From NCBI RefSeq assembly GCF_016127575.1, contig NZ_CP066019.1:2370001-2402000 (forward strand): a DNA stretch of 32,000 nt, given 5' to 3'. The translations under genes were made by a program, and so were the position numbers. The stretch is from Cupriavidus necator. GTDB taxonomy: Bacteria > Pseudomonadota > Gammaproteobacteria > Burkholderiales > Burkholderiaceae. This document shows, piece after piece, positions 9,423 through 24,933 of the stretch (positions are counted from its first letter, which is position 1; every line of letters starts with the position of its first letter). The notes below the pieces were generated by a model. The model made no database searches. It was not told the origin of the DNA and saw nothing but the letters and a program-made list of their open reading frames with translations.

Positions 9423-10565
9423 ATGCACCTTGCGTTGGCATTGTCGCTGCTGTCGCTGGCGGTCTGGCTGGTGCTGATCTTTGCCCGCGCGGGCTTCTGG
9501 CGCGTGCGCAAGCCGGCTGCCGCACCGGATCCCGCAGCCTGGCCGGAGGTGGTCGCGGTCATCCCCGCCCGCAACGAGGCCGACGTGATCGGCCGCGCCG
9601 TGGCCGGCGTGCTGGGCCAGCGCTACCGGGGCCGGCTGGCGCTGGTGGTGGTGGACGACCACAGCCAGGACGGCACCGCCGATATCGCCCGCGCCGCCGC
9701 CGCGGCCACCGCGCGCCCGCGGGGGCTGACCGTGATCGGCGCTCGCGAGCTGCCGGCCGGCTGGAGCGGCAAGGTCTGGGCGCAGTCCGAAGGATTGGCC
9801 GCGGCCGACGGCATCGCCCCGCAGGCCCGCTACGTCTGGCTGACCGATGCCGATATCTGGCACGGCCCCGGCGTGCTGGCCGGTCTGGTGGCGCGCGCCG
9901 AGCACGAACGGCGCGACCTGGTCTCGCTGATGGTCCGGCTGCGCTGCGAATCCGCCTGGGAACGGCTGATCGTGCCGGCCTTTGTCTTCTTCTTCGCCAA
10001 GCTCTACCCCTTCGCCCGCGTGCGCGATGCCCGCTGCCGCGTGGCGGCCGCGGCCGGGGGCTGCATGCTGGCCAGCCGCGCGGCGCTGGCGCGCATTGGC
10101 GGCTTTGCCGCCATCCGCGGCGAGCTGATCGACGACTGCGGCCTGGCCGCGCGCATCAAGCCCGGCGGCGCGATCCGGCTGGACCTGGCCGACGACAGCG
10201 TGTCGTTGCGGCCCTACAACGACTGGCGCAGCCTGTGGGACATGATCGCGCGCAGCGCTTATACGCAATTGCGCTACTCGCCGCCGCTGCTGGCCGGCGC
10301 GGTGGCGGGCATGGTGCTGACCTACCTGGTGCCGCCGGTGCTGGCGCTCGGCTGGCGGCTGTGGCCGGCATGGCTGGCCTGGGGCGCGATGACCCTGGCC
10401 TACCTGCCGATGCTGCGCGAATACCGGCAGCCGGCGTGGCTGGCGCCGCTGCTGCCGGTCACGGCGCTGTTCTACCTGGGGGCAACCATCGACTCGGCAC
10501 GGCGCTACTGGCTGCGGCGCGGCGGGCAGTGGAAGGGCCGGGCGCAGGCGCCGGTGCGGTCCTGA
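9423..10565 (+). CDS. hpnB: Hopanoid-associated family-2 glycosyltransferase HpnB
   Basis: 380 aa with an N-terminal TM helix. It matches the recalled HpnB pattern: AVIPARNEADVIG, VVVDDHSQDGT, LPAGWSGKVWA, WLTDADI, LVSLMVRLRC, AFVFFFAKLYPF, AAAGGCML, LIDDCGLA, plus C-terminal TM helices. It sits in an hpn context. Confidence 0.8.
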   Translation: MHLALALSLLSLAVWLVLIFARAGFWRVRKPAAAPDPAAWPEVVAVIPARNEADVIGRAVAGVLGQRYRGRLALVVVDDHSQDGTADIARAAAAATARPRGLTVIGARELPAGWSGKVWAQSEGLAAADGIAPQARYVWLTDADIWHGPGVLAGLVARAEHERRDLVSLMVRLRCESAWERLIVPAFVFFFAKLYPFARVRDARCRVAAAAGGCMLASRAALARIGGFAAIRGELIDDCGLAARIKPGGAIRLDLADDSVSLRPYNDWRSLWDMIARSAYTQLRYSPPLLAGAVAGMVLTYLVPPVLALGWRLWPAWLAWGAMTLAYLPMLREYRQPAWLAPLLPVTALFYLGATIDSARRYWLRRGGQWKGRAQAPVRS

Positions 10566-10580: not shown

Positions 10581-11588
10581 TTAGCGCTTGTCGAGATACC
10601 CCTGCGCCCGGAACCACTCCAGCGCGTCCCGCAAACCCTCCTGGTATGGCCGCGGCTGATAGCCCAGCACCTTGCGCGCCTTGTCTGATGTAAAGAACAT
10701 CCGGTACCGGGACATATTGAGTCCATCTACAGTGATGAACGGCTCCTTGCCGGTAAAGCGTGCCGCCGCCTCCGCCCCGTACGCCAGCGGGTACAGCGGC
10801 CAGCGCGGCAGCTGCATGGTCGGCGGGCGCCGGCCGCACAGCTGCGCGATGTCACGCAGCATCTGCTGCAGCATCACGTCCTGGCCGCCCAGGATGTAGC
10901 GCTCGCCGGCCTGGCCGCGTTCCAGCGCCAGGAAATGCCCTTCGGCCACGTCATCCACATGCGCCAGGTTCAGGCCGGTATCGACAAAGGCGGGGATCTT
11001 GCCCGTGGCCGCCTCGACGATGATGCGCCCGGTCGGCGTCGGCCGCACGTCGCGCGGGCCGATCGGAGTGGACGGGTTGACGATGACCGCCGGCAGGCCG
11101 CGCTCGGCCACCAGTTTTTCGACCACGCGCTCGGCCAGCACCTTGCTGCGCTTGTAGGCGCCGATGGCCTCGTGCGGGCGCAGCGCCGCGGTCTCGTCCA
11201 CCGGCGCCCGCGCGCCGGCCACGCGCAGCGTCGCCACGCTGCTGGTATAGACCACCCGCTCGACGCCGGCCTGCTGCGCGGCCTCCATCACGGCCAGGGT
11301 GCCGTCGACGTTAGTGCGCACGATCTCCTCGGGGTCCGGCGCCCACAGCCGGTAGTCGGCGGCCACATGGAACAGGTAGCGCACGCCCTGCAGCGCGGCA
11401 GCCACCGCGCCGGCGTCGCGCATGTCGCCTTCCGCCACGCTCACCGGCAGCCCGGCCAAGTTGGCGCGCGGGCTTTGCGGGCGCACCAGCACGCGCACCC
11501 GGAAGCCGCGTGCCAGCGCCCTGCGCACCACCGCCGAGCCCAGAAAGCCCGAGGCGCCTGTCACCAGCACGTCATCGTTTTTCGTCAT
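10581..11588 (-). CDS. hpnA: Hopanoid-associated sugar epimerase / NAD-dependent SDR HpnA
   Basis: 335 aa from ATG 11588. Rossmann motif VLVTGASGFLGSAVV and extended-SDR catalytic YKRSK. Dihydroflavonol-reductase-like body. Convergent with hpnB and divergent from ispH. Confidence 0.85.
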   Translation of the reverse strand: MTKNDDVLVTGASGFLGSAVVRRALARGFRVRVLVRPQSPRANLAGLPVSVAEGDMRDAGAVAAALQGVRYLFHVAADYRLWAPDPEEIVRTNVDGTLAVMEAAQQAGVERVVYTSSVATLRVAGARAPVDETAALRPHEAIGAYKRSKVLAERVVEKLVAERGLPAVIVNPSTPIGPRDVRPTPTGRIIVEAATGKIPAFVDTGLNLAHVDDVAEGHFLALERGQAGERYILGGQDVMLQQMLRDIAQLCGRRPPTMQLPRWPLYPLAYGAEAAARFTGKEPFITVDGLNMSRYRMFFTSDKARKVLGYQPRPYQEGLRDALEWFRAQGYLDKR

Positions 11589-11609
11589 AAGCCCGTTTTC
11601 CCGTGAGGC

Positions 11610-11651
11610 GGAGTCGCCCCGGGCCAGCCTCGCGCTGGCCAAGGCGACTCC
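11610..11651. promoter_or_regulatory. Compound hairpin / inverted repeat in the hpnA leader
   Basis: ggagtcgcc (11610-11618) and ggcgactcc (11643-11651) are perfect 9-bp arms. They enclose an inner ggccag/ctggcc stem. The structure begins 22 nt upstream of the hpnA start. Confidence 0.4.
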
Positions 11652-11708
11652 AGACAAAGCCGGCGTGTCGGGTATATAGTAACCACCGTGCGACGGAAAT
11701 GTGATCTG

Positions 11709-11737
11709 CGGTGGATCTCCGGTGGATGCCGGTGCAT
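11709..11737 (+). promoter_or_regulatory. Three helically phased direct repeats, CGGTG(G/C)AT, upstream of ispH
   Basis: cggtggat at 11709, cggtggat at 11720 and cggtgcat at 11730 have 11- and 10-nt spacing. They lie 60-90 nt upstream of the ispH ATG (11797). This geometry is typical of direct-repeat-binding regulators. Confidence 0.35.
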
Positions 11738-11796
11738 TTCCTGTCCCGCCATCCCAAACACTGAAACCCGTTGCAAAGGGTCGGGGGGCTTACTCT

Positions 11797-12810
11797 ATGC
11801 AGGTGATTCTTGCTCAGCCCCGGGGCTTCTGCGCTGGCGTGGTGCGCGCGATCGAGATCGTCGACCGCGCCCTCGTCAAGCATGGCGCCCCGGTGTTCGT
11901 GCGGCATGAGATCGTGCACAACAAGCACGTCGTAGAGGGACTGAAGGACAAGGGGGCGCGCTTCGTCGAAGAACTGGACGAAGTCCCGACCGGCGCCGTG
12001 ACGATCTTCAGCGCGCACGGGGTCTCGCGCGAGGTCATCGCCGATGCCAGCCAGCGCCAGTTGCATGCCATCGACGCCACCTGCCCGCTGGTGATCAAGG
12101 TCCATACCCAGGGCCGCCAGTACGCGGCCAGCGGCCGCACCGTGATCCTGATCGGCCATGCCGGCCACCCGGAAGTGGAAGGCACCATGGGCCAGATCCC
12201 GGGCAAGGTGATCCTGGTGCAGAACGAGGCCGAGGTCGCGCAGCTGGACCTGCCCGCCGACACCCCGGTCGCCTATGTCACGCAGACCACGCTGAGCGTG
12301 GACGACACCCGCAATATCATCGCCGCGCTCGGGCGCCGCTTCAGCAACCTGGTCGGTCCCGATACGCGCGATATCTGCTACGCCACGCAGAACCGCCAGA
12401 GCGCGGTGCGCGACCTGTGCAAGCTGGCCGACGTGATCCTGGTGATCGGCGCGACGAACAGCTCCAACTCCAACCGCCTGCGCGAGATCGGCACTGAAAG
12501 CGGCGTGCCCAGCTACCTGATCGCCGAAGGCGCCGAGCTGGACCCCGCCTGGGTGCGCGACGCCAACGTGGTGGGCATCACCGCCGGCGCCTCCGCCCCC
12601 GAGGAAATGGTCGAGGACGTGATCAACGCGCTGCGCCGGCTGGGCCCGGTGGATGTCACCACCATGGCCGGGCGCGAGGAACATGCCGAGTTCCGGCTGC
12701 CGCCCGAACTGGCCGACGTAAAGCCGCAATCGGCCCCGCGCAAGGCCGGCAAGGAACCCGCCGCAGTCGCGGCCGCACCGGCCACCGCCAACGAGAATAT
12801 CGCCGGCTGA
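11797..12810 (+). CDS. ispH: 4-hydroxy-3-methylbut-2-enyl diphosphate reductase (IspH/LytB), hopanoid-cluster copy
   Basis: 337 aa from ATG 11797. [19 protein letters not shown], HEIVHN, SAHGVS, DATCPLVxKVH, GHxGHPEVxGT and SSNSNRL match IspH, including the three Fe-S Cys positions. An Ala/Pro-rich C-terminal tail of about 20-40 aa extends beyond the canonical end. Confidence 0.93.
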
Positions 12811-12831: not shown

Positions 12832-14001
12832 TTGGCTATTCCGCTACTGCAGGTCGCCCGCGTGGGCGCCTACATCGTCGGCAAGCATCTGTCGCGACAG
12901 AAGCGCTATCCGCTTGCCCTGATGCTGGAACCGCTGTTCCGCTGCAACCTGGCGTGCTCAGGCTGCGGCAAGATCGATTATCCGGATCCCATCCTGAACC
13001 AGCGCCTGTCGGTGCAGGAATGCCTGGAGGCGGTGGATGAATGCGGTGCCCCGGTGGTGTCCATCGCCGGCGGCGAGCCGCTGCTGCACAAGGACATGCC
13101 GCAGATCGTGCAAGGCATCATCGCGCGGCGCAAGTTCGTCTACCTGTGCACCAATGCGCTGCTGATGGAAAAGAAGCTGGACCAGTACCAGCCCAGCCCG
13201 TATTTCATCTGGTCGGTGCACCTGGACGGCGACCGCGAGATGCATGACCGCTCGGTGTGCCAGGAAGGCGTGTACGACCGCTGCGTCGAGGCAATCCGGC
13301 TGGCCAAGCAACGGGGTTTCCGCGTCAATATCAACTGCACGCTGTTCAACGATGCCCAGCCCGAGCGCGTGGCGAAGTTCTTCGACTCGGTCAAGGCGCT
13401 GGGCGTGGACGGCATCACCGTGTCGCCTGGCTATGCCTATGAACGCGCGCCGGACCAGCAGCACTTCCTGAACCGCGGCAAGACCCGCCAGCTGTTTCGC
13501 GACATCCTCAGCCGCGGCCGCGCCGGCAAGAACTGGGCCTTCAGCCAGTCGACGCTGTTCCTGGACTTCCTGGCCGGCAACCAGACCTACCACTGCACCC
13601 CGTGGGGCAACCCGGCGCGCACCGTATTCGGCTGGCAGCGTCCGTGCTACCTGGTGGGCGAGGGCTATGCCGCCACCTTCCGCGAGCTGATGGAAGAAAC
13701 CGACTGGGACGCCTACGGCACCGGCAACTACGAGAAGTGCGCCGACTGCATGGTCCACAGCGGCTATGAGGCCACCGCCGTGGCCGACACCTTTGCCCAT
13801 CCGCTCAAGGCGCTGGGCGTGAGCCTGCGCGGCGTGCGCACCAGCGGGCCGATGGCGCCCGATATTGCGCTGGACCGGCAGCGGCCGGCGGAATACGTGT
13901 TCTCGCGCCACGTCGAGATCAAGCTCGAGGAAATCCAGCGCGCGAAACCGCGCGCCAACCGGCCGCGGCCGGCCGAGGCCAACGCCGCGGCCACGCACTG
14001 A
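12832..14001 (+). CDS. hpnH: Radical SAM adenosylhopane synthase HpnH
   Basis: 389 aa with a TTG start and AGGAAG 5 nt upstream. MLEPLFRCNLACSGCGKI carries the CxxxCxxC radical-SAM cluster motif. GGEPLLH and a C-terminal Cys-rich region (CTPWGNP, CYL, CADCMVHSGYE) match the recalled HpnH pattern. Confidence 0.93.
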   Translation: MAIPLLQVARVGAYIVGKHLSRQKRYPLALMLEPLFRCNLACSGCGKIDYPDPILNQRLSVQECLEAVDECGAPVVSIAGGEPLLHKDMPQIVQGIIARRKFVYLCTNALLMEKKLDQYQPSPYFIWSVHLDGDREMHDRSVCQEGVYDRCVEAIRLAKQRGFRVNINCTLFNDAQPERVAKFFDSVKALGVDGITVSPGYAYERAPDQQHFLNRGKTRQLFRDILSRGRAGKNWAFSQSTLFLDFLAGNQTYHCTPWGNPARTVFGWQRPCYLVGEGYAATFRELMEETDWDAYGTGNYEKCADCMVHSGYEATAVADTFAHPLKALGVSLRGVRTSGPMAPDIALDRQRPAEYVFSRHVEIKLEEIQRAKPRANRPRPAEANAAATH

Positions 14002-14012
14002 CCGCACTACCG

Positions 14013-15365
14013 ATGGCCGCGGAACTTGCCGCCACCCTCCCAGGCGCTGCGCTGACCTGCGTGTCGGCGGCCTATGCGCTGGCCGCGGCCTGGCTGTCGC
14101 ATCGCGCGCCGGCGGCAAGCGGCGGCACCGCGACGACGCCGGTCAGCGTGCTCAAGCCGCTGTGCGGCGCCGAGCCCCGGCTGTACGAGAACCTGGCCAC
14201 GCTGTGCCGGCAGCGGCATCCGTCGTTCCAGCTGGTATTCGGCGTGCATGCCGCGGACGATCCCGCCATCGCCGTGGTCGAACGGCTGCGCCGCGACTTC
14301 CCGGCGTGCGACATCGCGCTGGTGGTCGATCCGCAAGTGCACGGCACCAACCTGAAAGTCAGCAACCTGGTCAACCTGTTCGCACAAGCGAAGCACGATG
14401 TGCTGGTGATCGCCGACAGCGATATCGCCGTGCCGCCCGACTACCTGGCGCGCGTGACCGCGCCGCTGGCCGACGCCGGCGTGGGCGTGGTCACCTGCCT
14501 CTACCGCGGCAATCCGACTGGCGGGCGGTGGTCGCGCATCGGCGCGCAGTTCATCAACGACTGGTTCGCGCCGTCGGTGCGCATCGCCCACGCGGGCGGC
14601 TCGCAACGCTTTGCCTTTGGCGCGACGATTGCGCTGCGGCGGGATGCGCTGGTTTCGGTCGGCGGGTTCGAGGTATTGGCGGACCGGCTGGCGGATGACT
14701 TCTGGCTGGGCGAGCTGACGCGGCGACAAGGGTTGCGCACGGTGCTGTCAGACGTGGTGGTCAGCACCGATGTCACCGAGGAACACTTTGCCGACCTTTG
14801 GCGGCATGAGGTGCGCTGGCTGCGCACGATAAGGTCGCTCAATCCGCTGGGTTTTGCCTTCACCTTTATTACCTTCACCTGGCCGATGCTGGTGCTGGGC
14901 GTATTGCTGGCGCCGCTCCCTGCTGTTCTTGCCCTGGCGACCCTCGGCGTGATCGCGCGCAGCATGATGGCGGGCAGCGTGGCCGCTGCGTTGCGCGCGC
15001 CGTTGCGCGATGCGATGCTGCTGGCCGGCTGGGCCGTTGCGCTGACGGGCAAGCGCGTGCGGTGGCGCGAGCAGGTGCTGCCGGTACATGATGGGCAGCA
15101 CTCCGGGCGAGCGCCTGCCCTCTCCCCCGCCCCTCTCCCGCAAGCGGGCGAGGGGAGAAAACAGGCGGACAGGGAGCCGCCATCGCGTTATTCCGCACGC
15201 CGTCCTGCGGCAGCGTCCGTTGATGTGACGACGTTGAACGCAGCGGCGGTTCGCTCCCCTCTCCCGCCTGCGGGAGAGGGGCCGGGGGAGAGGGCCGGCG
15301 TATCCACGAAGTCCCCACCCCCAACCCCACCCTTCACCGGCATCCATCCCCAGAGGCCGCAATGA
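14013..15365 (+). CDS. hpnI: Hopanoid glycosyltransferase HpnI (N-acetylglucosaminyl transferase type) with a repeat-encoded C-terminal extension
   Basis: VSVLKPLCGAEPxLYENL, FQLVFGV, VIADSDI and the DxxLG / RHEVRWLRT ceramide-glucosyltransferase-like core run to about residue 358. Residues ~365-450 are translated from the palindromic repeats at 15117-15295. The stop overlaps the hpnJ ATG (ATGA). The true 3' end is uncertain. Confidence 0.82.
   Translation: MAAELAATLPGAALTCVSAAYALAAAWLSHRAPAASGGTATTPVSVLKPLCGAEPRLYENLATLCRQRHPSFQLVFGVHAADDPAIAVVERLRRDFPACDIALVVDPQVHGTNLKVSNLVNLFAQAKHDVLVIADSDIAVPPDYLARVTAPLADAGVGVVTCLYRGNPTGGRWSRIGAQFINDWFAPSVRIAHAGGSQRFAFGATIALRRDALVSVGGFEVLADRLADDFWLGELTRRQGLRTVLSDVVVSTDVTEEHFADLWRHEVRWLRTIRSLNPLGFAFTFITFTWPMLVLGVLLAPLPAVLALATLGVIARSMMAGSVAAALRAPLRDAMLLAGWAVALTGKRVRWREQVLPVHDGQHSGRAPALSPAPLPQAGEGRKQADREPPSRYSARRPAAASVDVTTLNAAAVRSPLPPAGEGPGERAGVSTKSPPPTPPFTGIHPQRPQ
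15117..15295. repeat. Inverted pair of REP/MITE-like palindromic units (41 and 42 nt arms) separated by ~96 nt, in the hpnI-hpnJ junction
   Basis: Arm 1 (15117-15157) is gccctctcccccgcccctctcccgcaagcgggcgaggggag. The reverse complement of arm 2 (15254-15295) is gccctctcccccggcccctctcccgcaggcgggagaggggag, which matches at about 38/41 positions with one indel. Each arm also contains its own hairpin (cccctctcccgc-N4-gcgggngagggg). The translations (PLPQAGEG, PLPPAGEGPGER; opposite strand SPLARLRERGGGEG) are typical of intergenic repeat families in beta- and gamma-proteobacteria. Confidence 0.8.
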
Positions 15366-16786
15366 AAAAAACCCTGTTCCTCCAGGCCCCTTCCTTCGAC
15401 GGCTTCGACGGCGGCGCGGGCTCGCGCTACCAGGCCAAGCGCGAGATCAAGTCGTTCTGGTACCCGACCTGGCTGGCGCAGCCCGCCGCACTGGTGCCGG
15501 GCAGCCGCGTGCTCGACGCACCGGCCGACGGCCTGACCGTGCAGCAGACGCTGGATATCGCCGCGGACTATGAACTGGTCATCATCCACACCAGCACGCC
15601 CTCGTTCCCCACCGACGCCAAGTTCGCCGAGGAACTGAAGCAGCGCAAGCCGGACGTGATGATCGGCATGGTCGGCGCCAAGCCCGCAGTCGATCCGGGC
15701 GGCACGCTGGGTGCCAGCGAGGCCATCGACTTCGTCTGCCGCGAGGAGTTCGACTACACCTGCCAGGACGTGGCCGCGGGCAAGCCGCTCCAGGACATCC
15801 TGGGCCTGTCCTATCGCTTGCCGGACGGCTCGCTCGAACACAACGGGCAGCGCCCGATGATCGAGAACATGGACGAGCTGCCCTTCGTGGCGCCGGTCTA
15901 CCAGCGCGACCTGAAGATCGACAACTACTTCATCGGCTACCTGAAGCACCCCTATGTGTCGATCTACACCGGCCGCGGCTGCCGTTCGCGCTGCACCTTC
16001 TGCCTGTGGCCGCAGACCGTGGGCGGGCACCGCTACCGCACGCGCTCGGCCGAGAGCGTGATCGCCGAGGTCAAATGGATCAAGGAGAACATGCCCGAGG
16101 TCAAGGAGATCATGTTCGACGACGACACCTTCACCGACTTCAAGCCGCGCGTGGAAGAGATCGCGCGCGGGCTGGGCCAGCTGGGGGTCACGTGGTCCTG
16201 CAATGCCAAGGCCAACGTGCCGTACAGCACGCTCAAGATCATGAAGGAGAACGGCCTGCGCCTGCTGCTGGTGGGCTATGAGTCCGGCGACGACCAGATC
16301 CTGCTGAACATCAAGAAGGGCCTGCGCACGGACATCGCGCGCCGCTTCACCGAGGACTGCCGCAAGCTGGGCATCCAGATCCACGGCACCTTTATCCTGG
16401 GCCTGCCGGGCGAGACGCGCGAGACCATCGAGAAGACCATCGAGTACGCCAAGGAAATCAACCCGCACACCATCCAGGTGTCGCTGGCCGCGCCCTACCC
16501 CGGGACCACGCTGTACCGGCAGGCGGTGGAGAACGGCTGGCTCGAGGAAAACAAGGTCATCAACCTGGTCAACGACCAGGGCGTGCAGCTGGCCGCGATC
16601 AGCTATCCGCACCTGTCCAGGGAAGACATCTACCACGGCGTGGAGACCTTCTATAAGCGCTTCTACTTCCGCCCCGGCAAGATCTGGGAAATCGTGCGCG
16701 AGATGCTGGGCAGCTGGGACATGATGAAGCGGCGCCTGCGCGAAGGCGTGGAGTTCTTCCGCTTCCTGCGCTCGCACGAGGCCTGA
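15362..16786 (+). CDS. hpnJ: B12-binding radical SAM protein HpnJ
   Basis: 474 aa. N-terminal cobalamin-binding-like domain, then IYTGRGCRSRCTFCLWP (CxxxCxxC). The remainder matches the recalled HpnJ family. It follows hpnI with a 4-nt overlap. Confidence 0.92.
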   Translation: MKKTLFLQAPSFDGFDGGAGSRYQAKREIKSFWYPTWLAQPAALVPGSRVLDAPADGLTVQQTLDIAADYELVIIHTSTPSFPTDAKFAEELKQRKPDVMIGMVGAKPAVDPGGTLGASEAIDFVCREEFDYTCQDVAAGKPLQDILGLSYRLPDGSLEHNGQRPMIENMDELPFVAPVYQRDLKIDNYFIGYLKHPYVSIYTGRGCRSRCTFCLWPQTVGGHRYRTRSAESVIAEVKWIKENMPEVKEIMFDDDTFTDFKPRVEEIARGLGQLGVTWSCNAKANVPYSTLKIMKENGLRLLLVGYESGDDQILLNIKKGLRTDIARRFTEDCRKLGIQIHGTFILGLPGETRETIEKTIEYAKEINPHTIQVSLAAPYPGTTLYRQAVENGWLEENKVINLVNDQGVQLAAISYPHLSREDIYHGVETFYKRFYFRPGKIWEIVREMLGSWDMMKRRLREGVEFFRFLRSHEA

Positions 16787-16788
16787 TC

Positions 16789-17628
16789 CTGGCCCACGCG
16801 CTTTCCTGTGCCTCGCAACGCGCGCTGATCGTCACCGCCGACGACTTCGGCCTGCACCCCGCCGTCAATGAGGCGGTGGAGCTGGCCCACCGCGACGGCG
16901 TGCTCAATGCCGCCAGCCTGATGGTGGGCGCGCCCGCCGTGGCGGATGCGGTCGAGCGCGCGCGCCGGCTGCCGTCGTTGCGCGTGGGGCTGCACGTGGT
17001 GCTGGCCGACGGCCCGGCCACGCTGCCGCGCGCGCGGATCCCCGACCTGGTCGACGCCGAAGCCCGCTTCGGCTCGGCCATGGCCCTGGACGGCTGCCGC
17101 TTCTTCTTCCTGCCGCGCGTGCGCCGCCAGCTGGCGGCGGAGATCCGCGCGCAGTTCGAAGCCTTTGCCGCCACCGGCCTGCCGCTTGACCACGTCAACA
17201 CGCACAAGCATTTCCACCTGCACCCCACGGTGCTGTCGCTGATCCTGTCGATCGGGCGCGACTACGGCCTGCGCGCGATGCGCCTGCCGCGCGAGCAGGG
17301 CGCGCCGTTGCCGCTGCGCCCCTGGCTGGCGCTGCTGCGCCGGCGCCTGGACCGCGCCGGCATCGCGCACAATGACTACGTGGTCGGCATCGCGCGCAGC
17401 GGGCAGATGGACGAGGCAGCCCTGCTGCAGGCGCTGGCGCAGTTGCCCGCGGGCGTGGGCGAGATCTACCTGCATCCGGCCGTGATCTCTGGCGAGGCCA
17501 TTACCGCATCGATGCGCGGCTACCGCCACGCCGACGAGCTGGCCGCGCTGCTGTCGCCGCGCGTGCGCGCCGCGCTGGAGCGCGCGGCCAACCGGCGCGG
17601 CGGCTTTGCCGACGTGCTGGTGCCCTGA
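16789..17628 (+). CDS. hpnK: YdjC-family deacetylase HpnK; start codon non-canonical or uncertain
   Basis: The conserved YdjC N-terminus RALIVTADDFGLHPAVNEAV is encoded at 16819-16875. In this frame there is no ATG, GTG or TTG between the stop at 16654-16656 and the GTG at 16876. I propose CTG 16789 (GAGG 7 nt upstream). CTG 16783 (overlapping the hpnJ TGA), ATC 16786 and CTG 16825 are alternatives. Confidence 0.75.
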   Translation: MAHALSCASQRALIVTADDFGLHPAVNEAVELAHRDGVLNAASLMVGAPAVADAVERARRLPSLRVGLHVVLADGPATLPRARIPDLVDAEARFGSAMALDGCRFFFLPRVRRQLAAEIRAQFEAFAATGLPLDHVNTHKHFHLHPTVLSLILSIGRDYGLRAMRLPREQGAPLPLRPWLALLRRRLDRAGIAHNDYVVGIARSGQMDEAALLQALAQLPAGVGEIYLHPAVISGEAITASMRGYRHADELAALLSPRVRAALERAANRRGGFADVLVP

Positions 17629-17637
17629 TTGTTCAAG

Positions 17638-18642
17638 ATGAAACGCATTGCTTACCTGACCGGCCTGATCGGGCTGCTGGCGCTCACCGCACTGGTGATC
17701 CACCAAGGCGCCAGCGACATCGCCGCCATCGTGGCGCAGGGCGGCTGGCTGCTGCTGTTGCTGGTGCCCCTGCATGCACTGCCGCTGCTGCTCGATGCGC
17801 AAGGCTGGCGCGTCCTGCTGACCTCGGCCGACCCCGAGGAGAAGGCGGGGCTCGGTTTCCTGTGGTGGGTCGCCACGGTGCGCGAAGCGGTCAACCGCCT
17901 GCTGCCGACGGTGGGGGTCGGCGGTGAACTGGTCGGCATCCGCCTGACGCGGCTGCGCATCCGCGACACCACCGCCGTCACCGCCAGCATCGTGGTTGAA
18001 GTGATGCTGACACTGTTCTCGCAGTACCTGTTCTCGGCCATGGGGGTGCTGCTGCTGGTGGCCGCGCTGCAGGACAGCGGCGGGGCCTGGATCATCCTGG
18101 CCGGGCTGCTGCTGTCATTGCCGGTGCCGGTGCTGTTCGCGCTGTCGCTGCGGCACACCGCGATCTTCGAGAAACTGGAAGGCGCGGCGCGCAAGCTGTT
18201 TGGCGAAGATCACCGCATCGTCGCCTTGATCGACGGTGCGCGGCTCGATGCCCATATCCGCGCGCTCAACCGGCGCCGGCGCGAGCTGCTGGCGGCACTG
18301 GGCTGGCAACTGGCAGGGCTGGTCAGCGGCACGCTGGAGATCTGGCTGGCGCTGATGCTGCTGGGCCATCCGGTGCCGGTCTGGCAGGCGCTGGCGATCG
18401 AATCGCTGACCCAGGCCGCGCGCCACGTGGCCTTCTTCGTGCCGGCCGGGCTGGGCGTGCAGGAAGCGGTGGTGATGCTGCTGGGGCAGGTGCTGGGGAT
18501 GGATGCGCAGGTCTCGCTGGCGCTGGCGCTGGTCAAGCGCGCGCGCGAGATCCTGTTCGGCGTGCCCGCGCTGCTGTCATGGCAATGGGTGGAGCTGCGC
18601 CACTGGCGGCGCAGCCGGCACACGGGCCACGCCTCGCCCTGA
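17638..18642 (+). CDS. hpnL: Hopanoid-associated membrane protein HpnL (lysylphosphatidylglycerol-synthase-TM / flippase-like family)
   Basis: About 334 aa from ATG 17638; TTG 17629, abutting the hpnK stop, is an alternative. Around 8 hydrophobic helices. The LPxxVGGExVGIRL-type motif and the position after hpnK fit HpnL. Confidence 0.78.
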   Translation: MKRIAYLTGLIGLLALTALVIHQGASDIAAIVAQGGWLLLLLVPLHALPLLLDAQGWRVLLTSADPEEKAGLGFLWWVATVREAVNRLLPTVGVGGELVGIRLTRLRIRDTTAVTASIVVEVMLTLFSQYLFSAMGVLLLVAALQDSGGAWIILAGLLLSLPVPVLFALSLRHTAIFEKLEGAARKLFGEDHRIVALIDGARLDAHIRALNRRRRELLAALGWQLAGLVSGTLEIWLALMLLGHPVPVWQALAIESLTQAARHVAFFVPAGLGVQEAVVMLLGQVLGMDAQVSLALALVKRAREILFGVPALLSWQWVELRHWRRSRHTGHASP

Positions 18643-18655
18643 TGGCGTGCGGCGC

Positions 18656-19300
18656 TCAGGCGTCAGACGCCTGGCGCGCGTTATGGGTGGTCAGGTACTT
18701 CACCAGCCCGTCGACCCCGCTGCGCGCGACGATGTCCGCAAACTGCTTGCGATACACCTCGATCAGCCACGCCCCCATCATATTGATGTCATAGATCTTC
18801 CAGCCGTTGGCTGTGCGCTGCAGCCGGTAATCGATCTGCATCTCGTCGGCATTGTTGATCACACGCGTCTGCACCACCACATCGGTGGCGCCGCTGCCGG
18901 ACTTGACCGGCTGGTAGCGGAACTTGACGCTCTGCTCGCGCAGTTGCGCCAGCGACACCGCATAGCTGCGCACGAGCAGCATCTGGAACTGCTCATGGAG
19001 CTGTTGCTGCTGCTCCGGCGTGGCCGTGCGCCAGGCACTGCCCAGCGCCAGCCGCGTGGTGCGCTGGAAATCCGTGTAGGGCAGGAACTGCTTCTGCACC
19101 ACCGCGGTAATCTTGGCGAGGTCGCCGGCGCGGGTGTCGGGATTGGACTGGATGGTGCCGATCACGCCCTCCACCGCGGCCTGCACCAGCCGCTCGGGGC
19201 TGGCGCGCAGGTCGCCGGGCTGGACTGCCTGGGCGTGCGCTACGGAAACCATGGCCACCGCCGCAAGCGGCGCCAGGGGAAGCAAACCGTGAATCGTCAT
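18656..19300 (-). CDS. hpnM: Periplasmic MlaC/Ttg2D-family lipid-binding protein HpnM
   Basis: 214 aa from ATG 19300. Signal peptide MTIHGLLPLAPLAAVAMVSVAHA-QA. The FxRTTRLALGSAW, YxxQ and WKIYDI/MMG motifs are typical of the toluene-tolerance Ttg2D/MlaC fold. The tracked 418-aa ORF extension is non-homologous. Confidence 0.85.
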   Translation of the reverse strand: MTIHGLLPLAPLAAVAMVSVAHAQAVQPGDLRASPERLVQAAVEGVIGTIQSNPDTRAGDLAKITAVVQKQFLPYTDFQRTTRLALGSAWRTATPEQQQQLHEQFQMLLVRSYAVSLAQLREQSVKFRYQPVKSGSGATDVVVQTRVINNADEMQIDYRLQRTANGWKIYDINMMGAWLIEVYRKQFADIVARSGVDGLVKYLTTHNARQASDA

Positions 19301-19471
19301 CGATATGAGAACCAGGAAGGACGGTGAAGCGGCGCCGGCGCTGCAGCGCCGATGCCAGGCTGACAGTTTATAGCGGATCGGCCTGAATCGCGGATGCCCG
19401 GGCCGCGCATGCCGCATGCGCCACGCTGCCAGCCGATATACTCGCGGTTCGTGCTCCTTCCGGATCCGCCC

Positions 19472-22108
19472 ATGCTGACTTCGCTGCTGACACGCATTGT
19501 CCGGCTTGCCACTGCCTGGCCGTGGCGCGTCATCATCCTGGCGGCATTGCTGACCGCCGTCAGCGGCGTCTACGTGGCCCGCAACTTTGCGATCAACACC
19601 GACATCGGCCGCCTGCTGGAATCCGACGCCCCCTGGGCGGTGCGCGATGCCGCCATCGGCGACGCCTTTCCCCAGCGCAACCAGTTGATCCTGGCGGTGG
19701 TGCAGGCGCCCGCGACCGAGCTGGCCGATGCCGCCGCCGACGCGCTGGCCGAGGCGCTGCGCCGCCAGCCGGCACGCTTCACCGCGGTCAGCCAGCCCGG
19801 CGGCGGTGCGTTCTTCGCGCGCAACGGATTGCTGTTCGCCAGCACCGATGAAGTGCGCCAGCTCACGCAACAGCTGATGCAGGCGCGCCCGCTCGTCAAC
19901 GCGCTCGCGCATGACCCGACCCTGCGCGGCCTGTCCGATCTCCTCGCCACCACGCTGGCGCTGCCGCTGCAGATGGGGCAGGTAAAGCTGGGCGACATGG
20001 CCAGGCTGCTGGGCAGCAGTGCACGGACACTAGACCAGGTGCTGGCCGGCAAGCCCGTCGCGCTGTCCTGGGCAGGGCTGCTCGACGACAGCCTCAAGCC
20101 CGGGCCCGATGGCCAGGTCTACAGCTACATCGCGCTCAGCCCCGTGCTGGACTACAGCGACCTGCAGGCCGGGGCCGCCGCCTCGCGCGCGATCCGGCAG
20201 GCGGCGGCCGAGCTGCAGCTGGCGCAGCGCTACCAGGCCACGGTGCGGCTGACCGGCCCGCAGGCGCTGGCCGACGATGAATTCGCCTCGGTCAGCGACG
20301 GCGCCGTGCTCAACGGCGTGCTGACGGTGCTGGTGGTGGTGCTGATCCTGTGGCTGGCCTTGCGCTCGGCGCGGCTGATCGTTGCGGTGCTGGCCAGCCT
20401 GTTTGCCGGGCTGCTCATCACCGCCGCGCTGGGGCTGGCCATGGTTGGCGCGCTGAACATGATCTCGGTGGCGTTCGCGGTGCTGTTCGTCGGGCTGGGG
20501 GTGGACTTCGGCATCCAGTTCGGCGTGCGCTACCGCGCCGAGCGCCATGACCGCGACCATATCGTCGAAGCGCTGGGGCTGGCCGCGCGCGCGGTGGGCG
20601 CTCCGCTGGCGCTGGCGGCCGCGGCCACGGCGGCGGCGTTCTTCTGCTTCCTGCCCACCGACTACCGCGGCGTGGCCGAGCTGGGGCTGATCGCCGGCGT
20701 GGGCATGATGGTGGCATTCGCCACCACCTTCACGCTGCTGCCGGCGCTGATCTGCGTGCTCAAGCCCGGCGGCGAGCCCGAGGCGCCGGGCTTCGCGTGG
20801 CTGGCGCCCGCGGACCGGTTCTTCGACCGCTATCGCAAGCCGGTGCTGCTGGTCACCCTGCTCGCGATCCTGGCAGGCGCGCCGCTGCTGCCGCACCTGC
20901 GCTTTGACTTCGACCCGCTGCACCTGAAGGACCCCAGGTCCGAATCGATGGCCACGCTGCTGGCGCTCAAGGACGCGCCGCAGGCCGGCACCGACGATGT
21001 CAGCGTGCTGGCGCCTTCGCTGCCGGCCGCGCGCGATCTGGCCGGCAAGCTGGCGGCGCTGCCCGAGGTGGCGCGCGCGGTCACGCTGCAGACTTTCATC
21101 CCCGCAGACCAGCCGCCCAAGCTGCAGGCCATCGGCCAGGCCTCGGCCGCGCTGATGCCGGCGCTGACGCAGCCCACCGCCACGCCCGCCACCGACAGCG
21201 CGCGCGTCAGTGCGCTGCGCAATGCCGCGCGGCAGCTGGCCATCGCCGCCGACGAGCATCCCGGTCCGGGCGCGGCCGAAGCCGCGCACCTGTCCGCCAC
21301 GCTGAAGCAGCTGGCGGCCGCCGACGCCGCCACGCGCGACCGCGCCGAGCGCGCCATCGCCGTGCCGCTGCAGCTGGCGCTGGCACGGCTGAAGCTGGCG
21401 CTGGGCCCGCAACCCGTCAGCGAGCAGACGCTGCCGCCCGAACTGGTGCGCGACTGGATCACGCCGGACGGGCGCGCGCTGGTCAACGTCAGCCCGAAGC
21501 TGCCGCCGCCCGCCAGCGCACAGCGCGAGGCCGCGCTGGACCGCTTCATCACCGCGGTGCAGCGCGTGGAGCCGACCGCCACCGGCGGGCCGATCGCGAT
21601 CCGCGGCTCGGCCGATACCATCATGGCCGCCTTTGCGCAGGCCGGCATCTGGGCGGTGGTGTCAATCACCATCCTGCTATGGATCACGCTGCGCCGCTTC
21701 GGCGATGTGCTGCGCACGCTGATACCGCTGCTGGTTTCGGCCATCGTCACGCTGGAATTGTGCGTGCTGTTCGGCATTGCGCTGAACTTTGCCAACGTGA
21801 TCGCGCTGCCGCTGCTGCTGGGCGTGGGCGTCGCGTTCAAGATCTACTACGTGATTGCCTGGCGGCACGGCAAGACCCAGCTGCTGCAGTCCAGCCTGAC
21901 GCACGCCGTGCTGTACAGCGCGGCCACCACCGCCACCGCTTTCGGCAGCCTGTGGCTGTCGCAGCATCCCGGCACCGCCAGCATGGGCAAGCTGCTGGCG
22001 CTGGCACTGGCGTGCACGCTGGTCGGCGCGGTGTTCTTCCAGCCGATCCTGATGGGCCGCCCGCGCGAAGGCGCCCATCACAAACATGACAAGGCCGCCC
22101 GGTCATAA
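19472..22108 (+). CDS. hpnN: RND-superfamily hopanoid transporter HpnN
   Basis: 878 aa from ATG 19472. Two 6-TM bundles each preceded by a large periplasmic loop (MMPL/RND architecture). [10 protein letters not shown]- and [13 protein letters not shown]-type TM4/TM10 segments. Divergent from hpnM. Confidence 0.9.
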
Positions 22109-22148
22109 TCACAAACCCGATGCGGCCGACCCCGACCCCCTTCGTACA

Positions 22149-22943
22149 ATGCCTTTACGCCAGCGCGCTACATCCGTTGCCACCACCGCCATTGCCGCCG
22201 CCCTGCTCGCCGGCTGCGCCACCGGCCCGCAAGCCAGTCCCGACGATCCGCTCGAGCCGATGAACCGCGCGGTCTTCACCGTCAACGACAAGCTCGACCA
22301 GTACGTGGCCGTGCCGGTGGCCAAGGGCTACAAGGCGGTCACGCCGGAGCCGGTGCGCACCGCGGTCACCAATTTCTATTCGAACATCGCGGACATCGGC
22401 AACTTTGCCAACAACCTGCTGCAGGGCAAGGGCGTTGAGGCAGCGGAGAGCTTCATGCGGGTCGCGATCAATTCCGTGCTGGGTATCGGCGGACTGATCG
22501 ACATCGCCACGCCCGCCGGGCTGCAGAAGCATTCGCAGGATTTCGGCCTGACGCTGGGCACGTGGGGCGTGCCGTCGGGACCCTACCTGGTGCTGCCGCT
22601 GTTCGGCCCCAGCTCATTCCGCGACGGCGTGGGCCTGTATGTGAATTTCCAGTTCGACCCGACCACCTATGCCGAGCCGGCGGTGCGCAATTCGCTGTTC
22701 GGGATGAACGTGGTGGACGTGCGCACCAACCTGCTGGGCGCCACCGACCTGCTGAAGCTGGCGGCGCTGGACAAGTACGCCTTTGTGCGCGATGCCTACC
22801 TGCAGCGGCGCCGCTACCTGCTGGGAGAGAACACGTCGCTGCCGGACTACGACGAAGACGACGACGGCGGCACGGCCGCAGCACCCGCCGCGGAGGCGCC
22901 GGCGGGCACGCCTGCGCCCGCGCAGCCGCAGGCGCCGCGCTGA
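22149..22943 (+). CDS. MlaA/VacJ-family outer-membrane lipoprotein
   Basis: 264 aa from ATG 22149. Lipobox LLAGC. DPLEPMNRAVFxxND, NFxxNLLQGK, NSxLGIGGLxD, DFGxTLG.WGV..GPYLVLPxxGPS..RD are MlaA hallmarks. An acidic then Pro/Ala-rich C-terminal tail occupies about 22827-22940. It starts 40 nt after hpnN. Confidence 0.88.
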   Translation: MPLRQRATSVATTAIAAALLAGCATGPQASPDDPLEPMNRAVFTVNDKLDQYVAVPVAKGYKAVTPEPVRTAVTNFYSNIADIGNFANNLLQGKGVEAAESFMRVAINSVLGIGGLIDIATPAGLQKHSQDFGLTLGTWGVPSGPYLVLPLFGPSSFRDGVGLYVNFQFDPTTYAEPAVRNSLFGMNVVDVRTNLLGATDLLKLAALDKYAFVRDAYLQRRRYLLGENTSLPDYDEDDDGGTAAAPAAEAPAGTPAPAQPQAPR

Positions 22944-22952
22944 CGCGGGGTC

Positions 22953-23387
22953 TTAGCCGCCGATCCCCAGCAGCACCACCTCGAAGGTAAGCGTGGCGTT
23001 CGGCGGAATCGTGCCCGGCACGCCGCGCGCGCCGTAGGCCGTGGCCGGCGGGCAGGTCAGCTTGGCCTTGCCGCCCACCTGCATCGCCTGCACCCCTTCG
23101 GTCCAGCACGGGATCACGCGGTTGAGCGGGAACGAGATCGGCTGGCCGCGCTTGTACGAGCTGTCAAACTCGGTGCCGTCGGCCAGCGTGCCGCGGTAGT
23201 GGACCTGCACCGAGTCGGTGGCCTTGGGCGAGGCGCCATTGCCCTTGATCAGGTGCTGGATGGTCATGCCCGACGCCAGCGTCTGCGGCGCCGCAGCGGG
23301 TGCGGCCGGGGCCGAGGCGGCCGGGGCGGCAGCGGAGGCGGCGCAGGCCAAGGTCAGGGTGCCGAGGAAAAGCGCAAGTGTTTTCAT
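22953..23387 (-). CDS. Secreted FKBP-type peptidyl-prolyl cis-trans isomerase
   Basis: 144 aa from ATG 23387. Signal peptide plus an Ala/Pro linker, then VHYRGTLADGTEFDSSYKRGQPISFPLNRVIPCWTEG and the IPPNATLTFEVVLL FKBP core. Confidence 0.9.
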   Translation of the reverse strand: MKTLALFLGTLTLACAASAAAPAASAPAAPAAAPQTLASGMTIQHLIKGNGASPKATDSVQVHYRGTLADGTEFDSSYKRGQPISFPLNRVIPCWTEGVQAMQVGGKAKLTCPPATAYGARGVPGTIPPNATLTFEVVLLGIGG

Positions 23388-23604
23388 GGGAAACCTGGTC
23401 GTGAGGTCGTGATTGGGGATGCGGCAGTTTAACCGACACACGGCAACGATATGGCGGCAGCGGCATATAGCGCACAACGCACCCCGGCCGTGCGCCTTGC
23501 GGCAGGCATGGTGCGGCGCACCCCGCCGCATCCGTTACACGGGGCGTTTTGCCGTCTACGATGGTTCGTGACAGCCCCGCTGCCGCGGGCGCACGGAGAT
23601 TGCC

Positions 23605-24933
23605 ATGGCACTCACGGATTCACGGGACCTTCCGGTCTCGACCCAGAACGCCCGCTCGGTCGAGCAGTATGAGACCGCCCTGCAACTGCTGAACGGCTAC
23701 TACGGCGACCCGCTCGCCGCCATCGACACGGCGCTGGCCGCCGACCCCGACTTCGCCATGGGCCACGCGCTGCGCGCCGCGCTGATGGTCACCTCTGGCG
23801 ACGGCATGGCCGAGCCCATGCTGCGCCAGAGCGTCGAAGCCGGCGAAGCCCGGCACGCCCGCGCCAACGACCGCGAGCGCCGCCACATCGCCGCGGCACG
23901 GGCCTGGCTGGACGGCGAGTTCGAGCGCTCGGTCCGGCTCTACGGCGATATCGTGATCGACTATCCACGCGACCTGCTGGCGATCCAGACCGCGCATCTC
24001 GGCGACTTCCTGCTGGGGCAGTCATCGATGCTGCGCGACCGCGTGGCGCAGGCGCTGCCGCACTGGGATGCCGGCATGCCGGGCTACGGCTACCTGCTCG
24101 GCATGCATGCCTTCGGCCTGGAAGAAACCCAGCTCTACGAGCGCGCCGAGGAAAGCGGCCGGCGCGCGCTCGAGCTCAATCCGCGCGACCCGTGGGCCGT
24201 GCACGCGGTGGCGCACGTGATGGAGATGCAGGGCCGGCTGGACGACGGTATCGCCTGGCTGGACGGGCGCCGCGACGACTGGTCCGACGACAATATGCTG
24301 GCCGTGCACAACTGGTGGCACCTGGCATTGTTCCAGCTGGAAGCGGGCAGGACCGACGAGGTGCTGGCGCTGTACGACCGCTATATCAAGCGCCCCGCGC
24401 CGGCGATCGCGCTGGACCTGGTGGATGCCTCCGCGCTGCTGTGGCGGCTGCACCTGCGCGGCGTGGACGTGGGCCGGCGCTGGCAGCCGGTGGCGGACGA
24501 CTGGCTCGGCCGCGGCGCGGCCGGCTACTACGCCTTCAACGATGTCCATGCCGTGATGGCCAGCCTGGGCGCGCACCGGCCCGCTGCCGCCGACCAGGTC
24601 CGCGCCGCGCTGGAGCGCGCCGCCCTGGGCAACGGCACCAATGCCATGATGTCGCGCGATGTGGGGCTGCCGGTGGCCGATGCCCTGATCGCGTTCGACC
24701 AGGGCGATTACAGCACCGCCATCGACCTGTTGATGCCGGTGCGCCTGATCGCCCACCGCTTCGGCGGCAGCCATGCACAGCGCGACATCGTCAGCCTGAC
24801 CCTGCTCGAGGCGGCGCTGCGCGGCCGCCGCAGCAACCTGGCGATCGCGCTCACGGCCGAACGCGCCGCGCTCAAGCCCATGAGTCCTAGCCTGCACCGG
24901 CTGGTGCAGCGCGCCGACTCGTGCCGCGCATAA
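23605..24933 (+). CDS. TPR protein of the TTC38-like family
   Basis: 442 aa of helical repeat sequence. The N-terminal pattern (xxAVxxYExALxxLxxYxGDPLAxIDxALAxDPDFxMGHALRA) and HNWWHLALF match my recollection of bacterial TTC38 homologues. Function unknown. Confidence 0.7.
   Translation: MALTDSRDLPVSTQNARSVEQYETALQLLNGYYGDPLAAIDTALAADPDFAMGHALRAALMVTSGDGMAEPMLRQSVEAGEARHARANDRERRHIAAARAWLDGEFERSVRLYGDIVIDYPRDLLAIQTAHLGDFLLGQSSMLRDRVAQALPHWDAGMPGYGYLLGMHAFGLEETQLYERAEESGRRALELNPRDPWAVHAVAHVMEMQGRLDDGIAWLDGRRDDWSDDNMLAVHNWWHLALFQLEAGRTDEVLALYDRYIKRPAPAIALDLVDASALLWRLHLRGVDVGRRWQPVADDWLGRGAAGYYAFNDVHAVMASLGAHRPAAADQVRAALERAALGNGTNAMMSRDVGLPVADALIAFDQGDYSTAIDLLMPVRLIAHRFGGSHAQRDIVSLTLLEAALRGRRSNLAIALTAERAALKPMSPSLHRLVQRADSCRA

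Follow-up and report, generated by a model that had tools for sequence, protein, structure and literature searches.

How a hopanoid might pass from the inner membrane through the periplasm to the outer membrane is the question raised by a 32,000-nucleotide stretch of Cupriavidus necator DNA (contig NZ_CP066019.1, positions 2,370,001 to 2,402,000; here called the window). Three neighbouring genes are concerned, namely hpnN (19472-22108, plus strand), a divergent gene for an MlaC-fold carrier, called 'HpnM' by position (18656-19300, minus strand), and a gene for an MlaA/VacJ-family lipoprotein of 264 residues (22149-22943, plus strand). An earlier note, made from the sequence, had read this triad as a possible dedicated Mla-like hopanoid shuttle. 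The protein features were found to fit all three compartments of such a shuttle, with an inner-membrane resistance-nodulation-division (RND) pump, a secreted carrier, and an outer-membrane lipoprotein, while the novelty of the idea did not hold, because it had already been published. The locus adds one more example to the HpnN-HpnM-HpnS pathway proposed by others and is unexceptional among the members of that candidate system, and it is reasonably probable that its three genes constitute one conserved module that moves hopanoids across the cell envelope.

RND pumps use the proton gradient to drive export. HpnN, as a pump powered by the proton-motive force, would extract hopanoids from the inner membrane, a step established for its orthologues; the secreted MlaC-fold paralog would then ferry the lipid through the periplasm, and the MlaA-fold lipoprotein, presumed to be co-transcribed with hpnN, would receive or insert it at the inner face of the outer membrane. 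A hand-over of hopanoids from HpnN to the carrier and on to the lipoprotein is therefore a plausible reading of the locus.

The same model was set out by Lawrence, Pan, Ollikainen and Belin in a preprint of July 2025, revised in March 2026, in which the MlaA-domain gene was named hpnS, an HpnN-HpnM-HpnS route analogous to Mla was proposed, and a dimer of Burkholderia multivorans HpnM and HpnS with diploptene was predicted using AlphaFold 3 (bioRxiv 10.1101/2025.07.29.667474 / PMC12324291). In several alphaproteobacterial orders, as well as across 'gammaproteobacteria', hpnM and hpnS were seen together in the vicinity of hpnN, and a VacJ-like lipoprotein was, according to those authors, already listed in TIGRFAM GenProp0761 (PMC12324291). 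Somprasong et al. (mBio 2020; PMC7157819) had placed the VacJ gene of B. ubonensis second in the hpnN operon, considered its product a likely outer-membrane protein, and stated from unpublished data that it is required for pump function; a vacJ transposon mutant displayed a small drop in the minimum inhibitory concentration of meropenem. According to the cited literature, including PMC12324291 and PMC7157819, delivery of hopanoids to the outer membrane requires HpnN orthologues.

The identity of the pump gene was clear. The product of 19472-22108, of 878 residues, matched the NCBIfam model NF052374 ('hopanoid transporter HpnN') with 1325.9 bits against a cutoff of 1100, and TIGR03480 with 1019.5 bits against 751.85, confirming the RND/MMPL-type assignment made earlier. 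Residues 1-866 aligned with residues 1-865 of B. multivorans HpnN (5KHN/5KHS/6WU0; 1087 bits), and this end-to-end alignment with 5KHN places the start codon at 19472 rather than at the head of a longer open reading frame (ORF) from 19394. An aspartate in transmembrane helix 4 (D345) and a Thr-Thr pair in helix 10 (T819/T820; window numbering) were invariant in six HpnN sequences; these residues are reported to form the proton relay (Kumar et al. 2017). The NCBIfam BstA model also matched the window HpnN, with 168 bits.

The divergent gene encodes a protein of 214 residues that matched PF05494 with 163.7 bits (gathering threshold 26), in agreement with the secreted MlaC-fold carrier described in the earlier note. 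Its N terminus, MTIHGLLPLAPLAAVAMVSVAHA/QA, reads by eye as a Sec-type signal peptide ending AHA/Q. An AlphaFold2 model of the protein (predicted local distance difference test score, pLDDT, 83) had as its best Foldseek match the Ralstonia solanacearum structure 2QGU, with a target-normalised TM-score of 0.90 and a root-mean-square deviation of 1.7 Å, and 2QGU was also the best sequence match in the PDB (183 bits). The label 'HpnM' could be kept in part. The slot between hpnL and hpnN is conserved for an MlaC-like gene in both genome and metagenome loci, and the name holds by position; the TIGR03481 model, however, gave the window carrier only 82.6 bits against a cutoff of 160.1. Other hpnN-linked carriers behaved in the same way (Crenobacter 93.4 bits, B. 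multivorans 70.0 bits), as did canonical MlaC proteins (Cupriavidus 69.8, P. xenovorans 89.4, and E. coli 69.3 bits). Since hpnN-linked carriers at 70-93 bits are no closer to the model than ordinary MlaC at 69-89 bits, membership of the TIGR03481-type HpnM family was ruled out, and the betaproteobacterial carrier is 'HpnM' by position only.

The lipoprotein encoded downstream of hpnN matched PF04333 with 257.5 bits (gathering threshold 25). Its lipobox, LLAGC, corresponds to L19-L-A-G-C23 (nucleotides 22203-22217), and C23 was invariant in 51 homologues. Significant Foldseek matches to its model were MlaA chains only (5NUQ/5NUO/8I8R, TM-score ~0.8). The E. coli MlaA equivalog NF011672 gave 145.9 bits, below its cutoff of 375, and the gene lies outside an mlaFEDCB operon, which places the protein outside canonical MlaA; as an MlaA-domain protein encoded 40 nucleotides 3' of hpnN and grouping with the B. 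multivorans copy, it fits 'HpnS' by domain and neighbourhood. The naming of such genes is not uniform, the MlaA-like gene having been called 'HpnM' (mBio 2020), 'HpnO' (TIGRFAM GenProp0761), and 'HpnS' (2025 preprint), while the MlaC-like gene is 'HpnM' in both TIGRFAM and the 2025 preprint.

An acidic and then Pro/Ala-rich tail, DYDEDDDGG...APAGTPAPAQPQAPR, had also been pointed out as unusual. The tail is present, spanning nucleotides ~22827-22940, and disorder is predicted for it (residues 229-256 have pLDDT values under 50), but it is common to MlaA proteins of the Burkholderiales and longer in canonical copies. Longer versions in the canonical MlaA of strain H16 (PDGDEDAD...PEAPAGT), in P. 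xenovorans MlaA, and in the HpnS proteins of B. multivorans and Crenobacter ruled out the idea of a peculiar feature. After the conserved RDAYLQRR the median tail length was 51 residues in hpnN-linked proteins versus 113 in those from mla operons, and the proportions of Pro+Ala and of Asp+Glu were similar. The tails share a short L-P-x-Y-[DE] stretch at their start, and P232 is invariant.

That the carrier and the lipoprotein are paralogs could be demonstrated within one genome. The window DNA corresponds to chromosome 2 of C. necator H16 (AM260480.1, ~2.457-2.478 Mb), where the MlaA-like protein is identical and the gene order matches, and the coordinates of the three genes are those of the public gene calls for the identical H16 DNA. 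Chromosome 1 of the same strain (AM260479.1, 3,692,092-3,702,523) carries mlaF-mlaE-mlaD, a gene for a 342-residue protein, mlaC-mlaB, and then an ABC-2 transporter, bolA, murA, and hisG. This locus was reached through the 2QGU sequence, a Cupriavidus MlaC, and an H16-specific MlaB variant; the peptide patterns used in the genome scan were too specific to reach the canonical H16 mlaA. The 342-residue protein is MlaA (PF04333, 255.7 bits) and shares 59% identity with the window lipoprotein over 235 residues, while the chromosome 1 MlaC shares 45% identity with the window carrier. A complete canonical operon, mlaF-E-D-A-C-B, therefore accompanies the window copies, which are true paralogs. The near-identical strain GA3-3 contains both the hpnN-linked and the canonical locus; a canonical mla operon is also found in C. 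necator NH9 and another Cupriavidus, and in B. cenocepacia mlaFEDvacJ-mlaCB is reported to lie on chromosome 1 (PMC10412643).

Conservation of the triad was assessed in two samples. With the MlaA-like protein as query, a search covering one genome for each species yielded 80 loci, which were sorted by tblastn with the window proteins. hpnN lay immediately upstream on the same strand in 31 of the 80, and the full triad was present in 30. A main group of 27 Cupriavidus loci among the 80 had hpnN directly upstream in 26, one locus ending at a contig edge, and a full triad in 25; all five Burkholderia loci had the full triad. Three further Cupriavidus loci had no hpnN nearby, and 45 came from Paraburkholderia and relatives, where in 40 cases mlaA was followed by mlaC in an arrangement like that of the canonical operon. 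Exact-protein look-ups added three triads, from another Cupriavidus, Crenobacter (Neisseriales), and B. ubonensis. A metagenome scan with an HpnN alignment returned 80 hpnN loci, all beta-like, at 58-90% identity. Eight of these stop on one side at the end of the contig and have the partner on the other side; both partners were present in 69 of the 72 informative loci. The earlier note had held that a sole mlaA with an unconserved adjacency would speak against a dedicated route; instead, a second mlaA was found and the adjacency proved to be widespread.

The three Cupriavidus loci with no hpnN nearby hold extra MlaA-like copies: L032 (9923-10723, Cupriavidus sp. 30B13), L033 (9797-10705, C. 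basilensis), and L034 (9830-10729, Cupriavidus sp. 2TAF22). Their products are 72-76% identical to the window lipoprotein and nest within the Cupriavidus hpnN-linked clade, and strain 2TAF22 has three MlaA types, the L034 copy, an hpnN-linked copy, and a canonical copy. A position beside an RND pump with an outer-membrane factor was considered for these copies and ruled out, because Pfam searches placed a major facilitator superfamily transporter gene directly upstream in L032 and L033 and an AcrB-type gene ~4 kb away; the context of L034 differs from that of the other two, so the extra copies have no consistent RND link.

Neighbour-joining trees (300 bootstraps, E. coli outgroup) separated the hpnN-linked proteins from their canonical relatives. 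The carriers of Cupriavidus, Crenobacter, and Burkholderia formed one clade with 100% bootstrap, apart from the canonical MlaC of Cupriavidus, Paraburkholderia, and Ralstonia. The hpnN-linked lipoproteins, including those of Burkholderia and Crenobacter, formed a clade with 78-84% bootstrap that was distinct from canonical copies; this clade also held the L032-L034 copies, a P. tropica copy (L039) without linkage to hpnN, and four proteins added without genomic context, one of which, B. ubonensis P0118, was later found to be hpnN-linked. Mean identity of the hpnN-linked lipoproteins was 51% to betaproteobacterial canonical copies and 31% to E. coli, the corresponding values for the carriers being 43% and 20%. 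Residue switches specific to the hpnN-linked clade numbered 14 in the carrier and two in the lipoprotein.

These comparisons bear on a first alternative, that the Mla-like paralogs still carry glycerophospholipids and tune the phospholipid content or asymmetry of the outer membrane during hopanoid insertion, possibly with hand-off to the canonical MlaFEDB, so that linkage to hpnN would reflect co-regulation only. The small number of switches that part the lipoprotein from canonical betaproteobacterial MlaA is in keeping with this, as is the fact that the closest solved structures to the carrier (2QGU, 11HY) are phospholipid-bound MlaC; MlaZ of Pseudomonas aeruginosa, which acts on phospholipid together with MlaY, provides a precedent for an MlaA paralog outside the Mla operon (PMC10374164). 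The linkage is, however, specific to hpnN and persists in H16 despite separation from shc, the carrier sits in a fully supported clade of its own with its fixed differences, a full canonical Mla system is kept in the same genome, and HpnN function is reported to depend on the VacJ gene (PMC7157819). A phospholipid role is on balance unlikely.

The arrangement of hpnN and the lipoprotein gene bears on a second alternative. The hpnN stop codon (TAA, 22106-22108) is followed by the ATG at 22149, so that the spacer (22109-22148, plus strand) is exactly 40 nucleotides, as had been noted; it contains no terminator-like hairpin and no obvious Shine-Dalgarno sequence. The distance from stop to start is -8 nucleotides in four of five Burkholderia loci, 2-66 nucleotides in the loci of the C. 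necator group (L005-L024, L026), and up to ~170 nucleotides in more distant Cupriavidus, where the choice of start is uncertain. Consensus scans of 18400-23700 for sigma-70 promoters and intrinsic terminators returned nothing. On the other side of hpnN, the 171-nucleotide region between the divergent genes (19301-19471) was aligned across 17 Cupriavidus intergenic regions and contains two conserved blocks, 19363-19381 (ACAGTTTATAGCGGATCGG) and 19429-19447 (CCAGCCGATATACTCGCGG); the TATAAA-like motif on the minus strand and the TATACT motif within them may be the -10 regions of two divergent promoters.

Under this alternative, the lipoprotein would be anchored in the outer membrane as an accessory to HpnN, which it would activate, stabilise, or contact directly as a bridge, with no freely diffusing shuttle and only a minor or separate role for the MlaC-like protein. 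The lipoprotein gene, and not the carrier gene, lies in the hpnN operon, with stop and start codons overlapping in Burkholderia, and a Roseomonas plasmid has a VacJ gene after hpnN and no MlaC-like gene within 7 kb; the wording 'required for efflux pump function' (mBio 2020; PMC7157819) would also suit such a role. Set against this are the divergent MlaC-like gene retained in 69 of 72 informative betaproteobacterial hpnN loci and the AlphaFold 3 complex of carrier and lipoprotein, which resembles that of MlaC and MlaA (bioRxiv 10.1101/2025.07.29.667474). We regard an accessory of this kind as improbable, and the three-gene transport module as the preferred reading.

Several observations nevertheless weigh against that module. 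The promoter and terminator scans neither support nor exclude co-transcription of hpnN and the lipoprotein gene, and, given their null result, the case for it is one of spacing and conservation. No paper with direct transport or binding data for Mla-like partners of HpnN was found, and the papers retrieved show neither hopanoid binding by either Mla-like protein nor hopanoid mislocalisation in mutants, their sole functional statement being the one drawn from unpublished data. With so few clade-specific positions, the sequence of the lipoprotein provides no argument for a new substrate. Three metagenomic hpnN homologues lack both partners and lie in unrelated neighbourhoods, and among alphaproteobacterial loci, which like that of Roseomonas come from a plasmid collection, those of Methylobacterium and Azospirillum have neither partner, indicating that HpnN does not depend on Mla-like proteins everywhere. 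Finally, the papers retrieved, PMC11131202 among them, describe the E. coli MlaA-MlaC pair as a retrograde route. As E. coli Mla is mostly regarded as retrograde, the direction of the window module cannot be inferred from homology. A retrograde or bidirectional module, which would retrieve hopanoids or balance them between the two membranes in the way that Mla handles phospholipids, finds its precedent there but is very unlikely, given that hopanoids need HpnN orthologues to reach the outer membrane, according to the literature cited above, and that RND pumps in general export by means of the proton gradient.

The three partnerless metagenomic homologues (L171, L178, L183) are 58-59% identical to HpnN, and the neighbours of L183 are genes for an NMT1-type binding protein, a dihydroxy-acid dehydratase, and a LysR regulator. 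They may be HpnN paralogs with another role.

Where the Mla-like partners came from was also considered. The betaproteobacterial carrier and lipoprotein look as if they arose by duplication of mlaA and mlaC, which are neighbours in the local mla operon, since their nearest relatives are betaproteobacterial canonical proteins, the carrier is no closer to TIGR03481, and the alphaproteobacterial VacJ stands apart. In a neighbour-joining tree with a single alphaproteobacterial sequence, the hpnN-linked VacJ of Roseomonas joined the betaproteobacterial hpnN-linked clade in 0 of 300 bootstraps. All betaproteobacterial MlaA, canonical copies included, grouped against Roseomonas VacJ and E. coli at 98%, the canonical MlaA sequences in this tree coming from outside the alphaproteobacteria; for the carrier, the comparison of alpha with beta consists of the TIGR03481 scores. 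Together these relationships hint that the alpha- and betaproteobacterial hpnN-linked MlaA copies had separate origins. That HpnN acquired Mla-derived partners on more than one occasion is a serious possibility, to which we give somewhat less than an even chance. If it did, 'HpnM' and 'HpnS' would be convergent solutions and not single families, and the recurrence would provide independent evolutionary support for a functional RND-Mla partnership.

The module is the leading candidate for the passage of hopanoids through the periplasm, and C. necator H16 is a non-pathogenic host that can be engineered with ease. With the same model already in print, the locus adds no new concept. What is added here is direct evidence, from a single genome, that the copies are paralogs, counts of gene adjacency in independent samples of genomes and metagenomes, the exclusion of the betaproteobacterial carrier from the TIGR03481 type of HpnM, and a first hint of separate alpha- and betaproteobacterial origins of the hpnN-linked MlaA.

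The triad forms the downstream end of a hopanoid cluster, identified with NCBIfam and Pfam models, in a window of high G+C content throughout (63-73%). On the plus strand, except for hpnA, and with NCBIfam scores above the curated cutoffs, the cluster contains hpnB (9423-10565; HpnB, 537 bits), hpnA (10581-11657, minus strand; HpnA, 488 bits), ispH (11701-12810; IspH, 487 bits), hpnI (14013-15365; HpnI, 481 bits), hpnJ (15362-16786; HpnJ, 861 bits), hpnK (16876-17628; HpnK, 375 bits), and hpnL (17629-18642; HpnL, 379 bits); hpnH (12832-14001, plus strand), between ispH and hpnI, was recognised by its Radical_SAM and DUF3463 domains. No shc, hpnC-E, or hpnG was detected within the 32-kb window using NCBIfam and Pfam. 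Downstream of the triad are genes for an FKBP isomerase (minus strand), a tetratricopeptide repeat (TPR) protein, DUF6152 and DUF6644 proteins, copDCBA, and copRS. The hopanoid cluster of the H16 lineage is thus split, the triad being followed by the FKBP gene, the TPR gene, and a copper-resistance island (copDCBA, copRS). In another Cupriavidus, Crenobacter, and B. ubonensis (L085, L087, L104), hpnG-shc-hpnD lies directly 3' of the triad. That the H16 triad is intact although shc and hpnG are not nearby points to linkage with hpnN and not with the biosynthetic genes.

Some further features of the window were recorded. The secreted FKBP-type isomerase (22953-23393, minus strand) is convergent with the MlaA-like gene and keeps this position in the C. 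necator group; it matched the NCBIfam BamJ model with 76.7 bits, the cutoff being 100. Within the 3' end of the hpnI ORF (15112-15300), a 26-nucleotide GC-rich palindromic element, CCCCTCTCCCGCnnGCGGGnGAGGGG, resembling repetitive extragenic palindromic sequences, occurs twice (15130-15155 and 15256-15281). The two copies give rise to a non-conserved HpnI extension of ~85 residues ('PLPQAGEG...PLPPAGEG'), the match to the HpnI model stopping at residue 362 of 450. An ORF of 329 codons (8424-9413, plus strand) ends 10 nucleotides 5' of hpnB and matched no Pfam or NCBIfam model and no PDB sequence with a threshold as loose as E≤10, yet it is almost certainly a real gene given its third-position GC of 0.91. 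A ferritin-like di-iron enzyme is suggested by its two E-x-x-H motifs (EEARH and EEGRH), and the ORF may belong to the hopanoid cluster as an accessory gene that has yet to be characterised; its family is widespread, with 962 representative clusters at E≤1e-3 and 190 at E≤1e-30. A 795-residue protein encoded at 40-2427 (plus strand), which has no relation to the hopanoid genes, scored 365 bits with the TOMM system kinase/cyclase fusion model (cutoff 706), the match falling in the C-terminal half of the model.

Among known systems, the HpnN-HpnM-HpnS set of Lawrence et al. (B. multivorans BMULJ_05342, BMULJ_05340) agrees with the window module in families, gene order, and orientation; the window proteins fall in the same clades and are 45% (carrier), 60-61% (HpnN), and 59% (lipoprotein) identical to their B. 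multivorans counterparts. The hpnN-vacJ operon of B. ubonensis belongs to the same triad, with P0118 in the clade of the window lipoprotein. Unlike in L085, L087, and L104, the lipoprotein gene in H16 is not followed by shc or hpnG. The E. coli Mla system (MlaA-OmpC/F, MlaC, MlaFEDB) shares with the window pair the MlaA and MlaC folds, the lipobox, and the signal peptide; its engine, however, is an ATP-binding cassette (ABC)/MCE complex, whereas that of the window is an RND pump, with no mlaD, mlaE, mlaF, or mlaB at the locus, and the likely direction of the window module is outward. MlaYZ of P. aeruginosa (PA3238/PA3239; PMC10374164) likewise comprises an MlaA paralog outside the MlaFEDCB operon with a different partner, but there the partner is a lipase, the substrate a glycerophospholipid, and neither an RND pump nor a carrier is involved. 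BstABC of Methylococcus capsulatus (PMC11713862) also combines an HpnN-like RND protein with a periplasmic binding protein and an outer-membrane lipoprotein, and its genes, like the triad, belong to a gene cluster for cyclic triterpenoid biosynthesis. Neither BstB, a bilobed binding protein resembling PhnD, nor BstC, a helical lipoprotein of the TatT type, has an Mla fold; BstABC is the closest analogue for which binding of a ligand, a sterol, has been measured.

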